From an uncultured Gemmatimonadota bacterium (GTDB lineage Bacteria; SM23-81; DAOVCL01), in assembly GCA_964626665.1 (NCBI GenBank), contig CAZVGK010000005.1, positions 60,069 through 120,674 on the forward strand: DNA of 60,606 bases, written 5' to 3'. Below the pieces are notes generated by a model, which did not search any database, was not told where the DNA came from, and was given only the letters and a program-made list of their open reading frames with translations. The position numbers were made by a program, and so were the translations under genes. Positions 2,242 to 6,670 of this stretch are shown here, one piece after another (positions within the stretch are counted from its first letter, which is position 1; each line of letters opens with the position of its first letter).

Positions 2242-2826
2242 TCAAACACAGATATTTTTGTAACAGCAGTCTATACATTTCGCTCTGTTTCTGGTCTTCT
2301 TCGGATAATATCCATTTTGCACTATTTTTAATATTTCCTCAACTACCCTCAGGGCATTATCAAAATCAGAGGATTTGAACACAACTTCCCGCAAGAGGTT
2401 ATTAGAGCGGACATAGACTAAGAATCCTTTTTCTACTGACTTCCCATAATTCTCCTGAATTAGCAGAGCCTCTAAGGTCAACTGCGTCCTATGGGTTTTG
2501 AAAACATAGGGCCTATATTCAGCGAACTTATACTCTAATGGAGCCATTGTCCCATCAGAGAGGGATAGAACCTCATCTACTATTCCTCGGATTTTATGTT
2601 TAGGACTGGAGAGGTATACAGAAATTTCCTTGTCAATACATCCAATTTTCTTTCGCACATACTCCCGGTTAACCCTCGTTTTCCTTTCATGCACCTCTCT
2701 GCCTATAAGCACCTTGTAACGCAATTCTTGGTGTTCCGGAATCATCAGCACCTGCTCAAAGTAGATAAACCTTGGGCAGAAAAGATACTCTATAACCTCA
2801 GTTGGTGTGACAGAAACATTATTCAT
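2242..2826 (-). CDS. cas4: CRISPR-associated exonuclease Cas4
   Basis: N-terminal YLFCPR, RecB-type GIVD...PLEYK motif, C-terminal CxxCCYxxxC Fe-S cysteines. Confidence 0.95.
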   Translation of the reverse strand: MNNVSVTPTEVIEYLFCPRFIYFEQVLMIPEHQELRYKVLIGREVHERKTRVNREYVRKKIGCIDKEISVYLSSPKHKIRGIVDEVLSLSDGTMAPLEYKFAEYRPYVFKTHRTQLTLEALLIQENYGKSVEKGFLVYVRSNNLLREVVFKSSDFDNALRVVEEILKIVQNGYYPKKTRNRAKCIDCCYKNICV

Positions 2827-2827
2827 A

Positions 2828-2884
2828 AGGAAAAGTGATGAGCAAGGAGCAATGAGTAATGTGCAATGAGCGAAGAGTAGTGAG
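2828..2884. repeat. Heptamer tandem repeats (GAGCAAG/GAGCAAT/GAGTAAT/GAGCGAA), downstream arm of four-helix-bundle cassette 1
   Basis: Inverted relative to 3335-3393; about 49 nt align. Confidence 0.9.
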
Positions 2885-2931
2885 TTTAGGCTAATCTAGG
2901 TTCTGGATAAACGGCTAAATTAATTCCCTTC

Positions 2932-3348
2932 TCACTCCTTGTCTTTTACACCTCCCTTCCGAGATCGAATTAAACCAGAAAGCATTCGGCTGACCTCTGC
3001 TAAGTTCCCATTGAGTACCTCAAACTTTTTCTCATCAAAATAACCAAGCCGGCGACAGATCTCAAATTGTGTATCCAACTCACTCACCGAACCTCTGGCA
3101 ATAATCCAGAACTGCATCTTCTCCTTTGATGATCTTCGGGCACATCCCTCTGCGATATTACTCGGAATGGAAACCACGGCCCTTTGTATCTGTGAAATGA
3201 GGTTGTACTGCTCACTTTTTGGAAAGGTCTTCAGTGTCTTATAGACGTTTACAACCAGATCAACACTTTTTTGCCATATCACCAACCTTCGATGTGGCCT
3301 TTCCTCTGCTATTTGCCTACCCACAATTCTTTTTCCTTCGCTCATCAC
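2932..3348 (-). CDS. Four helix bundle protein (23S rRNA-intervening sequence protein family) #1
   Basis: L-x-x-WQKS...FPKSEQYNLISQIQRAVVSIPSNIAEG...ARGSVSELDTQ signature. Confidence 0.93.
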   Translation of the reverse strand: MMSEGKRIVGRQIAEERPHRRLVIWQKSVDLVVNVYKTLKTFPKSEQYNLISQIQRAVVSIPSNIAEGCARRSSKEKMQFWIIARGSVSELDTQFEICRRLGYFDEKKFEVLNGNLAEVSRMLSGLIRSRKGGVKDKE

Positions 3349-3393
3349 TCCTTGCTCCTTGCTCCTTGCTCATTATTCTTCCCTCTTCGCTCA
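3335..3393. repeat. Heptamer tandem repeats (CTTGCTC)n, upstream arm of cassette 1; contains the cas2 stop codon
   Basis: Minus strand reads TGAGCGAA GAGGGAA GAATAAT GAGCAAG GAGCAAG GAGCAAG GAGTGAT GAGCGAA. Confidence 0.9.
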
Positions 3394-3681
3394 TAGAAAC
3401 AGCGCCTTCACCTCGTCTGTTACCAACTTTTTGTCAAAGGCCTGGCCAATAAGTTTCACTTTGCTAAAGTCATCTTTGCACATAGGGAAGATGTAAACTG
3501 AATCCTTTTCTTCATCAACCAGACTTTTTATCTTCAGGCCCAATTCATCAATCCTGTTGAGGTTGAGGTCACCGAGGAAGACTGACTTCTGCACCCGATA
3601 AATGCCAGTCCCCAGACAGATCTTGGCCACTTTAGTGCGAACCTTATTATCCTGTATGTCGTAGATCACCCAAGTAAGCAT
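3391..3681 (-). CDS. cas2: CRISPR-associated endonuclease Cas2 (start re-assigned to ATG 3681, 96 aa)
   Basis: WVIYDI...RVQKSVFLG...DSVYIFP motifs; GGGGG SD-like sequence before 3681; the longer ORF-track N-terminus is translated heptamer repeat. Confidence 0.95.
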
Positions 3682-3689
3682 GATGCCCC

Positions 3690-3757
3690 CAGAGAGACGA
3701 GAAACGAGAAACGAAAGACGAAAGAGGCGAAGAACGAGAGGCAAAAGGCCGAAAGAC
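3690..3757. repeat. Heptamer tandem repeats (AGAGACG/AGAAACG/AAAGACG), downstream arm of cassette 2
   Basis: Inverted relative to 4139-4175. Confidence 0.9.
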
Positions 3758-5138: not shown

Positions 5139-5338
5139 TTTATTCCAGGTTATGTGTTAAGAAACCACGAGATTTCACAAGATTATCACCAGATATTCAA
5201 AATAAAGAGCTTTCAAAAATTGAGTTTAACCCCCTTTTTCACCTAAGAGGAGATAAAAAACAAAAGAGAGATGAAGTAAACCGATTAGTTAAAAATCTTT
5301 AAACTTTGCGACTTTGCGGTGAATTCTTTAGTTTGGGT

Positions 5339-5890
5339 TTATTCCTTAAGCACTTTCATCAGTCTATTCCAGATGGCCATATCTTCAGCCTCATCCGATA
5401 TTTTCTGTGCCCAAGACTCCAAATACTTCCTATCTAACCTCCCCTTATGTCTTAAGGCTATCCCTTCAGCATCAATCAAATCCCTGGGGCGAGCGGGAAT
5501 TATCTTGAGTAGCAAAAGGTCTTCCTTAGAGGGGAGAAATACATCCTTATCAAAGATTTCTACCGAGACCTTTCTCTCTAAGGCGCTCCTTTCAAGTTCA
5601 GTGGAGGCAATCAAAAGGTCAAGATGAAGATCATCAAGAAAGAGTCTGAATACCCCTCTTTCCTTGGCCTCGGATAAGATCACCTTTCTATCAAAACTAA
5701 ATCCCATCTCTTCTGCTCTGGCGAGGAATGACCCCAGTTCGGGCTTCTTAATGAAGATTATAATATCAACATCCTGGGTGAATCTCGGTTCCCCAAAGAC
5801 ACCAACGGCGATTCCGCCGATAATTAAATACTCAACCTTGGCTTCCTCTATCAATTCAATGCAGCTTCTGAAATAATCCCTAAACTCCAT
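5339..5890 (-). CDS. Nucleotidyltransferase-fold protein (DUF6036/AbiEii-like)
   Basis: YLIIGGIAV...GEPRFTQDVDI motif; EDLLLLK...RPRDLID C-terminal motif. Confidence 0.8.
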   Translation of the reverse strand: MEFRDYFRSCIELIEEAKVEYLIIGGIAVGVFGEPRFTQDVDIIIFIKKPELGSFLARAEEMGFSFDRKVILSEAKERGVFRLFLDDLHLDLLIASTELERSALERKVSVEIFDKDVFLPSKEDLLLLKIIPARPRDLIDAEGIALRHKGRLDRKYLESWAQKISDEAEDMAIWNRLMKVLKE

Positions 5891-6062
5891 TCTTTGTAAA
5901 CTCCTTCTTTATTCTCCTAAATTCCCTATCCAATCCTGAATTGAGAAGAAACTCCATTATCTTTATGCCCTCTTCTATCTTCAACCTCTGCAAATGTTTT
6001 ACCCTTTCCGCCTCTAACCTCTCAAACCTGGTTTTATCCCACAAGCTAAAATCTTTTTTCAT
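5880..6062 (-). CDS. Small hypothetical protein, possible antitoxin-like partner of the nucleotidyltransferase
   Basis: 60 aa, GAGGGTG SD-like sequence, overlaps the start of the nucleotidyltransferase gene. Confidence 0.6.
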   Translation of the reverse strand: MKKDFSLWDKTRFERLEAERVKHLQRLKIEEGIKIMEFLLNSGLDREFRRIKKEFTKNGV

Positions 6063-6109
6063 CTTAACACCCTCTTTTGATTCCTTTTTCTGGAATCCGT
6101 GCTCTGGAT

Positions 6110-6160
6110 TAAAGACTGTTTAAGCCGTTCAAACAGGTAAAGCCGTTTAAACGGTTTAAG
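6110..6160. repeat. Nonamer repeats (CCGTTTAAA/CGGTTTAAG type), downstream arm of cassette 3
   Basis: Same self-complementary 9-mer family as 6609-6670. Confidence 0.8.
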
Positions 6161-6604
6161 TAGATTTTTTGGGTGGACTCTTCAACATCTCGGTTACCTC
6201 TTCTCTCATAGACTTATAGTGCTTTTTATACTTTTGGCCCTTGAATCTGCTCTTTTTCAAGTAATTGATGAAATTGTGTATGGTGATAGACAATTTCTTG
6301 AATGATTCGAGGAGCACATTGAACTCTTTTTCGGTTATCCCTGATCGTAGGCGATATGAAGTTGGCACCTGGCCTCACCATAGGAAGCTTTGGCAATGAA
6401 TAGAAACTGGATGAATTCCTGGTTTCCTCCCCGCTCAAATCCCTCAGCTATGTTGGACATAACCGAGACTGAAGCCCTTCTTATCTGGTCAACAAGGCCG
6501 AAGTCTTTGGAAAAGGCATCCTTACGGGTAAGGGAGTAAACTCTATTGGTAACTTCTCTGGCCAATTTCCAGATTTCCAAATCTTCAAAGTATTTGACAG
6601 TCAT
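6156..6604 (-). pseudogene. Four helix bundle protein #3, frameshifted at about 6337
   Basis: FEDLEIWKLAR...QIRRASVSVMSNIAEGFERGGNQEFIQFLFIAK...AYDQG stops at TAA 6335-6337; the expected continuation ITEKEF...FINYLKKS lies in the -1 frame (ORF 6156..6368). Confidence 0.85.
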
Positions 6605-6608
6605 CTCT

Positions 6609-6670
6609 TAACCGTTTAAACGGTTTAAACGGTTCAAACAGTTTAACCCGTTCAAGCGGTTTGAACGGTT
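6609..6670. repeat. Nonamer repeats (CGGTTTAAA/CGGTTCAAA type), upstream arm of cassette 3
   Basis: accgtttaaacggtttaaacggttcaaacagtttaacccgttcaagcggtttgaacggtt. Confidence 0.85.

Follow-up and report, generated by a model that had tools for sequence, protein, structure and literature searches.

Four-helix-bundle genes enclosed by inverted tandem-repeat arms at operon junctions, with a local hot spot in a type I-B cas locus of a Gemmatimonadota bacterium

The stretch of DNA analysed here, 60,606 nt of contig CAZVGK010000005.1 from an uncultured Gemmatimonadota bacterium (hereafter the window, whose positions serve as coordinates unless a contig is named), carries a type I-B CRISPR-Cas locus on its minus strand, and three genes of the PF05635/TIGR02436 four-helix-bundle (4HB) family are interleaved in the adaptation block of this locus, all on the same strand. 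Each of them is enclosed by complementary arrays of short tandem repeats. The same package was found between ordinary genes throughout the genome and in other bacteria, so that it looks like a widespread selfish insert and not like a part of CRISPR. The pattern is real and statistically strong, as 43 of 56 PF05635 loci have flanks that pair with a stem score of at least 14, compared to 1 of 300 random 315-bp windows of the same genome. We regard it as a new context and variant of an element of the intervening sequence (IVS) type, neither a CRISPR component nor a wholly new system. In this regard, the "candidate new system" of an initial annotation of this DNA was an overstatement, since both an IVS gene with its terminal stem and 23S_rRNA_IVP genes in cas loci are already in print. 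The explanation that we favour, with slightly better than even confidence, is a selfish foldback cassette of the IVS type that lives in operon transcripts and for which the cas locus is a hot spot, not a purpose.

Gene-bearing hairpins in the adaptation block and beyond

Profile scans identified Cas8b1/Cst1-like, Cas7/Cst2/DevR, Cas5b and Cas3 genes, followed by an adaptation block in the order cas1, cas2, cas4, leader and array (Table 1). The 4HB genes of this block, 4HB#1 to 4HB#3, scored 131.1, 60.4 and 99.8 bits against PF05635 (cut-off 33.8), the last over profile positions 1-82 of 106, and the first two scored 128 and 74.6 bits against TIGR02436 (cut-off 24). 4HB#1 is also homologous to the structurally solved protein Xcc0516 (PDB 2GSC) and to 2RLD. 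The in-frame part of 4HB#3 (frame A) covers 6335-6604 and its C-terminal helix is carried on in another frame at 6156-6368; the orthologue in one congener, G001, is likewise truncated. The initial annotation was thus right about the family and the arms of this third gene, but the gene is frameshifted and does not stand beside cas1, from which it is separated by about 1 kb holding a DUF6036 nucleotidyltransferase gene and a 60-aa open reading frame (ORF). Here and below, G000 is the genome that holds the window (3.17 Mb, 63 contigs, C5 being the contig of the window), G001 and G002 belong to the same genus, and G013 belongs to another phylum.

Inverted-repeat, Tandem Repeats Finder (TRF) and Pfam scans agreed that all three genes are bracketed by inverted tandem-repeat arms, as had been noticed initially, and that each cassette has a repeat family of its own, with two different 7-mers and one 9-mer. 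TRF resolved period-7 arrays in cassette 1 (2838-2871, 4.9 copies; 3348-3371, 3.4 copies with 100% matches) and cassette 2 (3695-3725, 4.4 copies), and an array of period 9 in cassette 3. All three cassettes take up their spacer completely, beginning at the upstream stop codon and reaching almost to the downstream start. The 3' arm of cassette 1 ends 2 nt ahead of the cas4 ATG, and its 5' arm takes in the start of 4HB#1 and abuts the cas2 stop codon; the 3' arm of cassette 2 ends 7 nt ahead of the cas2 ATG, and the cas1 reading frame closes inside its 5' arm, which supplies the last codons and the stop. As read from the sequence, the GAGCAAG unit also makes a repeated AAGGAG just 5' of the 4HB#1 start. 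In minimum free energy and centroid folds of the sense RNA alike, the two arms pair into the stem that closes the cassette (z -2.33, -4.29 and -4.13), and neither a promoter excess nor a minus-strand terminator was found across 2000-7600.

Table 1. Cassettes, genes and array features in the first part of the window.
Feature	Position	Strand	Evidence or remarks
4HB#1, intact, cas2/cas4 junction	2932..3348	-	PF05635 E 2.3e-38; TIGR02436 E 1.7e-37; PDB 2GSC E 7.4e-28
4HB#2, intact, divergent, cas1/cas2 junction	3773..4138	-	PF05635 E 2.2e-16; TIGR02436 E 6.7e-21
4HB#3, frameshifted pseudogene	6156..6604	-	PF05635 E 1.2e-28 over 6335-6604, one stop inside the match
Cassette 1, inverted arms	2829-2875 / 3336-3382		47 nt, 81% complementary
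Cassette 2, inverted arms	3692-3726 / 4139-4173		35 nt, 83% complementary
Cassette 3, inverted arms	6115-6156 / 6610-6651		42 nt, 76% complementary
Cassette 1, 3' arm, reverse complement of GAGCAAG-type heptamers	2829..2885	-	inverted-repeat, TRF and fold
Cassette 1, 5' arm, GAGCAAG heptamers	3336..3394	-	inverted-repeat, TRF and fold
Cassette 2, 3' arm	3692..3749	-	inverted-repeat, TRF and fold
Cassette 2, 5' arm, GAGAGAC/GAAAGAC heptamers	4139..4173	-	inverted-repeat, TRF and fold
Cassette 3, 3' arm, 9-mer CGGTTTAAA family	6115..6159	-	inverted-repeat and fold
Cassette 3, 5' arm, 6.8 copies of AACGGTTTA	6610..6670	-	inverted-repeat, TRF and fold
cas4	2242..2826	-	PF01930 E 4.6e-13; TIGR00372 E 1.5e-38
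cas2	3391..3684	-	PF09827 E 3.7e-22
cas1	4158..5138	-	PF01867 E 2.8e-84; TIGR00287
DUF6036 nucleotidyltransferase gene	5339..5890	-	Pfam scan
Remnant ORF, fused DUF6922/AbiEii fragments, enters 5' arm of cassette 3	6608..6784	-	pair intact in G002
CRISPR array, 37-nt repeat, leader beside cas4	1..2080	-	28 repeat copies on C5
Partial gene-less AATTGAG-family hairpin	1..66	-	cut by assembly gap ahead of the window
Gene-less AATTGAG/AATTAAG heptamer hairpin in spacer position	104..229	-	TRF and array map
Second complete gene-less AATTGAG-family hairpin in spacer position	342..466	-	TRF and array map

The same packaging extends well beyond the window. G000 has 16 PF05635 matches, nearly all with inverted tandem arms that differ from copy to copy (units GTCAG-type, AGAGCATA, GGTAATC, GAGTCAT, ATTGCAA, AAATACCT, AATGACG and AATTGAG), and most of them lie at other operon junctions, including sucC/sucD and further metabolic operons. 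Four of the 16 are pseudogenes or fragments. The stem score given above compares the two flanks of a gene without gaps (+1 for a match, -1 for a mismatch), and the 56 loci were drawn from G000, its two congeners, another 25 genomes out of a sample of 61 (28 of which have PF05635), and 13 named genomes from a related-locus search. When mismatches were penalised more heavily (+1/-2), all shifted control windows of the same locus were beaten at 14 of 27 loci in other genomes and at 13 of 14 loci from the related-locus search. The 13 loci with scores below 14 may be other subfamilies or decayed copies. This recurrence, in G000 as in other genomes, makes the layout a property of the gene family and not of cas loci.

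Turnover in related genomes and the cas hot spot

The initial annotation had asked whether related cas operons offer sites without a cassette, and they do: the cas1-cas2-cas4 genes have no insert in G050 (Cas1 60% identical) and G034 (45%), where neighbouring genes either overlap or are separated by spacers of 52 and 14 nt. In G002 an orthologue of 4HB#1 is present (91-93% protein identity) with GAGCGAG-like arms, and the cas1/cas2 junction holds an unrelated 4HB gene with arms of the GAAAATG type. The latter gene is also found in G001, with an arm several units shorter, and G001 lacks 4HB#1 through a deletion that is bounded exactly by the start codons of 4HB#1 and cas4 and leaves a solo 5' arm. 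A third, unrelated 4HB gene with CCGTTTC arms stands at the cas1/cas2 junction of G013 (Cas1 57%), whose cas2/cas4 junction has a gene-less hairpin of similar units. This one junction is held, therefore, by three unrelated cassettes, in G000, in G001 and G002, and in G013. Decay was also seen. At the C13:36498 site G002 retains arm traces and the last third of a gene after an internal deletion, and at sucC/sucD it retains 192 nt with one arm trace; one G001 cassette stands where G000 has a gene-less hairpin of another family (window ~17377-17537). Gene and arms are gained, lost, replaced and decayed as a unit.

The third cassette of the window offers a further comparison. Between the small ORF and a 188-aa ORF, G002 has two genes, one matching DUF6922 (E 4.9e-14) and one for a nucleotidyltransferase of the AbiEii family (E 3e-6), of which G000 retains only the fused fragments in the remnant ORF listed in Table 1. 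Rates of change also differ along the block. The 4HB#1 ORFs of G000 and G002 are 91% identical in DNA with a synonymous divergence (dS) of 0.35, compared to dS values of 1.48 for cas2 and 1.21 for cas4 and to 80-83% DNA identity for cas4, cas2, cas1 and the 188-aa ORF; the nucleotidyltransferase gene and the small ORF (5339-6062) are 91-94% DNA-identical to their counterparts on G002:C55, and conservation is lowest in the arms of cassette 1 (63-77%). The low divergence of these small modules can be read either as their exchange between the lineages after the cas genes had diverged, homing-like and at the same site, or as constraint on synonymous sites.

Our data also bear on the idea that these cassettes specifically colonise cas gene junctions. 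A local hot spot does exist, because four PF05635 genes (three in the window and one at C5:59073-59423) lie within ~9.5 kb of the G000 adaptation block and array, together with at least five complete gene-less hairpins; yet the cassettes are not cas-specific, with most copies of this genome elsewhere. Cas1 and PF05635 occur together in 13 of the 61 genomes and are at most 10 kb apart only in G000, G001, G002 and G013, while none of the nine others has them within 10 kb, a count limited by contig breaks. These four genomes carry related type I-B loci, and as three of them are congeners the hot spot is a feature of one cas-locus lineage.

Genes annotated as 23S_rRNA_IVP have been reported between cas genes, often beside cas4 and also in type I-B loci, and were linked to the adaptation module (Zhang & Ye 2013, PMC3936711; Altae-Tran et al. 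2023, PMC10910872). Both papers treat them as CRISPR-linked genes, and the sections consulted mention neither repeat arms nor a cassette nature. That 4HB genes are true accessories of adaptation, acting in spacer acquisition and conserved with cas1-cas2-cas4, would agree with the three copies in one adaptation operon, with the copy beside the array and with the proximity to cas1 in the four genomes named above. We nevertheless consider this very improbable. Neither presence nor position is kept, since the occupants of the cas1/cas2 junction are non-orthologous in three lineages, 4HB genes are missing from the related operons in G050 and G034, one copy of the window is a pseudogene and another was lost in G001. 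Furthermore, the packaging is identical at sucC/sucD and other metabolic junctions, and in the nine other genomes with both families the distance criterion of 10 kb yields no case.

PF05635/TIGR02436 is a large family with solved structures and no assigned activity that has twice been flagged as CRISPR-linked. If the selfish-cassette explanation is true, this association reflects an insertion hot spot and not a function, and PF05635 genes should not be called accessory cas genes in annotation. If such cassettes normally lodge between operon genes, the 23S rRNA IVSs, the unexplained excess of tandem heptamers seen across bacterial genomes and the CRISPR association of PF05635 would join up.

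Orientation, mobility and relation to known elements

The cassettes follow the direction of their hosts. In the 42 cassettes examined the upstream neighbour was on the same strand in 28 cases and on the opposite strand in 3, and the downstream neighbour in 27 and 2, respectively, the rest being uncallable. The median gap between the upstream stop codon and the 5' arm is 4 nt (interquartile range, IQR, -3 to 10; at most 15 nt in 20 of 27), and that between the 3' arm and the downstream start is 12 nt (27 measurable). The geometry proposed initially, in which the stem brings the flanking host genes back together, is thus real. Read on the sense strand, 35 cassettes have more G than C in the 5' arm, 6 have more C than G and 2 have equal numbers (p 5e-6), and the arm is purine-rich in 30 cassettes compared to 10. 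A role in RNA or translation is favoured by this asymmetry, which a symmetric DNA hairpin would not give. Dependence of the cassettes on host transcription and translation is well supported, and formation of the stem in RNA is plausible.

According to the model that we propose, the cassette is a PF05635 gene between complementary arrays of about 4-5 tandem units of 7-9 nt; it has no promoter or terminator of its own, is sense-oriented and would be co-transcribed with the host operon. The arms would pair in the transcript into a 30-50-bp stem, and the base of that stem would bring the stop codon on its upstream side close to the start codon on its downstream side. Because the 5' arm, which is G-rich and resembles a Shine-Dalgarno sequence, contains the ribosome-binding region of the cassette gene, translation of that gene should need opening of the stem, which ribosomes completing the preceding gene could, for instance, bring about. 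The stem would be an RNase III-type substrate, as in rRNA. Cassettes turn over by insertion, by replacement with an unrelated cassette at the same junction, by gene loss to a solo arm or a gene-less hairpin, and by pseudogene decay, and at least one subfamily moves, or is carried, as a unit resembling a miniature inverted-repeat transposable element (MITE), with terminal inverted repeats (TIRs) and 8-bp target duplications. Lying precisely where one cistron stops and the next begins, such a long double-stranded RNA stem would offer a natural system for asking how operon mRNAs cope with large structured inserts or make use of them.

The closest known elements are the ORF-bearing IVSs of 23S rRNA, with examples in Leptospira and in Coxiella burnetii, which were reportedly described by Ralph and McClelland in 1993 for the former genus. 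The cassettes share with them the protein family, the size (~430-560 nt), complementary termini that close a stem with an S23p-family ORF in the loop, the proneness of the ORF to decay, and the absence of an own promoter, the element riding on the host transcript. In the S23p IVS of Coxiella burnetii, a 28-bp terminal stem is cut by RNase III in mid-stem and tandem GACAGAT heptamers of strain-variable copy number lie just 5' of the S23p start (PMC4990558). Unlike the IVSs, the cassettes are hosted by spacers between protein-coding genes or by the CRISPR array and not by rRNA: in the window the hosts are cas4/cas2, cas2/cas1 and the DUF6922/AbiEii remnant, and the 23S rRNA gene of G000 (C22:51863-54919) lies on a contig without any PF05635 match. 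In addition, both cassette arms consist wholly of tandem units, the unit is cassette-specific and the base of the stem abuts stop and start codons. Excision by RNase III has been demonstrated for IVSs; for the operon cassettes it may be expected from the rRNA precedent, and an RNase III gene is encoded in G000. A study of Candidate Phyla Radiation (CPR) bacteria placed 23S_rRNA_IVP ORFs in insertions of both 16S and 23S rRNA, and the terms "inverted repeat" and "tandem repeat" are absent from its text. The open-access literature searched held no cassette with a gene between tandem-repeat arms at operon junctions, the pieces being already in print.

Several observations weigh against the selfish transcript cassette. 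Transition-type stem mismatches in sense orientation are G·U in 58 cases and A·C in 54 (p 0.78); with no excess of G·U, per-base selection for RNA pairing is not visible, and upkeep of the complementarity at the DNA level is possible. The arms are 400-500 nt apart with a translated interval between them, which may hinder pairing in vivo. The stop and start geometry would follow trivially if any cassette with terminal arms filled a short intercistronic spacer. The three cassettes of the window have no visible target-site duplication (TSD) or common terminal sequence and so do not reveal how they were inserted. Insertions are not always neutral, because cassette 3 coincides with the loss of most of the DUF6922/AbiEii pair. 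Finally, the locus counts include orthologues and overstate independence.

Some of these points would be expected if the arms acted in DNA, as in a foldback transposon or MITE. They would then be TIRs or hairpin or cruciform ends used for movement, the RNA stem would be incidental and the 4HB protein would be cargo or a mobility factor, which we consider rather unlikely; maintenance of complementarity by DNA-level processes, such as slippage and templated hairpin repair, seems to us doubtful to the same degree. The even split of G·U and A·C mismatches fits this reading, as do the multi-copy gene-less derivatives and the gain or loss of whole arm units between G001 and G002. It is also favoured by a subfamily with GGTAATC arms, of which G000 has at least four near-identical copies. 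Outside the heptamer arms this subfamily is bounded by imperfect TIRs (GTAACTATTTACCC... and ...GGCTAAAATGTTAC), and at all three complete copies an AT-rich target of 8 bp is directly duplicated on either side (AATTGAAA, AATTCTGG and TTTAATTC), the AATTCTGG copy being two contig ends read as one copy. A gene-less element of ~200 bp with the same kind of GTAAC end is found at C1:33621-33823. Some cassettes therefore move, or are carried, as MITE-like DNA, and the combination of a GTAAC TIR with an 8-bp TSD is one that we take to be IS66-like. However, this TIR lies outside the heptamer arms, so that the cassette may merely ride in a MITE, and the arms differ in every cassette, which leaves no common transposase site. 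The three window cassettes show no TSD, and neither the strong co-orientation nor the G-rich 5' arm is expected of a symmetric DNA element.

The Drosophila FB (foldback) elements have long inverted ends built from tandem subrepeats. The cassettes resemble MITEs and foldback elements in their inverted ends, gene-less derivatives, multi-copy families and, in the one subfamily, TIRs with 8-bp TSDs. They differ from them in that most have an ORF under selection, arms unique to the copy, no visible TSD and strict co-orientation. An integron gene cassette was considered and not adopted, as the arms flank the ORF on both sides; no IntI search was made. A phage vector is not indicated, because the only phage match to 4HB#1 was the accessory variability determinant (Avd) of a diversity-generating retroelement (DGR) in Vibrio phage VP585, at 27% identity. 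As a separate observation, the GGTAATC 4HB copy at G000:C31:97-400 abuts a fragment which, from the appearance of its motifs, resembles an IS4/IS5-type transposase.

We also analysed how the repeat units relate to the proteins. The nine intact copies of G000 are 16-48% identical to 4HB#1 and have a common Q..R..S...N..E core. The ratio of nonsynonymous to synonymous divergence (dN/dS) was 0.03-0.17 in five orthologue pairs and 0.38 in the closest pair, with 0.08 for 4HB#1 and its G002 orthologue and 0.02 and 0.08 for cas2 and cas4; these low values indicate that intact 4HB proteins are kept by selection. Over 56-61 cassettes, pairs sharing at least three stem 6-mers made up 6 of 9 with a protein identity of 75% or more, 3 of 19 between 60 and 75% and 11 of 1802 below 60%. 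9-mer arms of the CGGTTTAAA type are common to 4HB#3 and a 70%-identical protein of G013 (C13:3347), and AGTCTTG arms to several Cytophagales proteins of 66-77% identity. Since sharing falls off with protein identity, the unit travels with the gene and turns over faster than the protein. The covariation between protein clade and repeat family suggested initially is thus present among close protein relatives, but only to the level given by descent; inheritance of the unit fits cognate recognition and fits plain descent equally.

This leads to the question of whether the proteins read their own arms. The stems have a median of 4.6 units (IQR 3.8-5.1), with period 7 in 35 of 43. PDB entries 2GSC and 2RLD have five chains each, and Xcc0516 is stated to be a pentamer in the part of PMC4990558 consulted. 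The match between ~4.6 units per stem and a pentamer is suggestive, with the count partly set by the detection threshold. A 4HB pentamer could thus bind its tandem arms with one unit per subunit, as in TRAP, and in this way regulate how it is itself translated or how the cassette is processed or moves. The build of the arms as tandem and not as plain inverted repeats, the inheritance of units with the protein and the purifying selection on the proteins all speak for such binding. On the other hand, common descent alone yields the same covariation, and none of the 16 PF05635 matches has arms that correspond to the abundant gene-less hairpin families GACAGGAT and CACGGAAC of this genome. We hold this reading to be very unlikely. 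A wider version, also unlikely but a little less so, is a self-contained module in which a pentameric 4HB ring would read about five arm units as RNA or single-stranded DNA and would govern opening of the stem, translation of its own gene, release by RNase III and coupling of the host genes; it might in addition help the cassette to be copied into the corresponding site of a related genome, as in homing. Homing would explain the low dS of 4HB#1 relative to cas2 and cas4. If this module exists, the published CRISPR association would mean that the element prefers precursor transcripts that undergo processing (rRNA, pre-crRNA and cas operons), and not that it has a role in immunity.

Two further groups of known systems share single features with the cassettes. 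The Avd proteins of DGRs are homologous four-helix bundles, and their genes are not described as enclosed in hairpins. The DGR reading was rejected as unsupported, since the Avd models scored below cut-off (NF033474, 41 bits, cut-off 80; PF22296 bAvd, 33.3 bits, E 7.5e-08, cut-off 40); no reverse transcriptase (RT) was seen among the neighbouring ORFs scanned (cas, nucleotidyltransferase and unknown genes), in a scan that included no dedicated search for RT or for template and variable repeats (TR/VR).

Dispersed heptamer repeats are the second group, and the cyanobacterial short tandemly repeated repetitive (STRR) sequences belong here. In the parts of the papers that we consulted, GGGAATC heptamers form 70-75 convergent pairs in Xanthomonas (Rehm et al., PMC4692102), and TAACTGA repeats lie upstream of starts in Beggiatoaceae, cyanobacteria and Bacteroidetes (MacGregor, PMC4679880). 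Like the cassette arms, these are intergenic tandem units, often just 5' of starts and sometimes in convergent pairs able to form stem-loops. Unlike them, one unit dominates per genome in the cases described there, whereas each cassette has its own unit here. A term-level search of the two texts returned no link of heptamer repeats to an enclosed gene.

Gene-less hairpins of the CRISPR array and neighbouring genes

The crRNA sense of the array is the minus strand. The array runs on past the window start to G000:C5:59483, and the best promoter-like site near it is at 2120-2092 on the minus strand. The gene-less AATTGAG hairpins that had been noticed in the array were recovered (Table 1); the two complete ones take the place of spacers, with 125-126 nt between CRISPR repeats, and TRF located the period-7 arms of this fourth family (AGAATTA/ATTCTTA) at 111-145, 351-378 and 417-447. 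They are read as internal-deletion derivatives, because both of their ends are common with the gene-bearing copy at G000:C5:59041-59575. Uptake of 125-nt hairpins by Cas1-Cas2 as oversized spacers, suggested by their exact spacer positions, was not adopted, since repeat-repeat recombination acting on a single inserted cassette, followed by internal deletion, would give the same pattern. Past the window, the array trailer is a series of modules. In each of them a degenerate CRISPR repeat and a small GC hairpin precede two arms, a 5' AATTGAG arm and a 3' arm, which either enclose cargo or stand without it. The cargo is the 4HB gene at C5:59073-59423 in one case and a transglutaminase-like gene (PF01841, E 1.9e-20) in the other. 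Because a run of N stands at G000:C5 ~59970-60068, just ahead of window position 1, the hairpin count at this end of the array is a lower bound. In both G001 and G013 a 4HB cassette is found directly behind a CRISPR repeat beside the leader, that of G013 following the first repeat and having GCGGAAGT arms. Cassettes in such positions would probably be transcribed within the pre-crRNA.

The transglutaminase-like gene of the trailer encodes 483 aa (G000:C5:57534-58985) between arms at C5:57228-57326 and 59041-59075. It starts right behind a 5' AATTGAG arm and GC hairpin, as the 4HB gene does, and a complete hairpin lies 3' of it, as if a larger cargo occupied the same kind of module. Gene-less hairpins of another family, with the 9-mer GACAGGATT in tandem, are dispersed in the window (14928-14953, 15330-15358, 17402-17420 and 42789-42814) and further at C2:31097, C3:20679, C6:95704, C8:14022 and C9:54156, in all cases without a 4HB gene. 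At C8:14022-15055 two GACAGGATT arrays flank ORFs that, judged by their appearance, are putative DUF86/HepT-like and nucleotidyltransferase genes. In addition, an element of ~165 nt near the sucC region (G000:C4:122536-122700) has more than 80 copies of 81-92% identity in each of G001 and G002 and is an abundant MITE-like repeat of the genus.

Among the neighbouring genes, the nucleotidyltransferase gene (DUF6036/DUF2204) between cas3 and cas1 overlaps the 60-aa ORF (together 5339-6062). Both are kept in G001 and G002 with 89-100% protein identity and may form a pair of the toxin-antitoxin kind within the cas operon. The cas1 gene of G001 (G001:C146:742-1718) is split by a frameshift or stop into residues 1-220 and 218-324. 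Lastly, two neighbouring spacers of the G000 array (723-760 and 798-835) are identical, within a 75-nt unit present in 2.5 copies with 100% matches, which is a repeat-spacer duplication inside the array.

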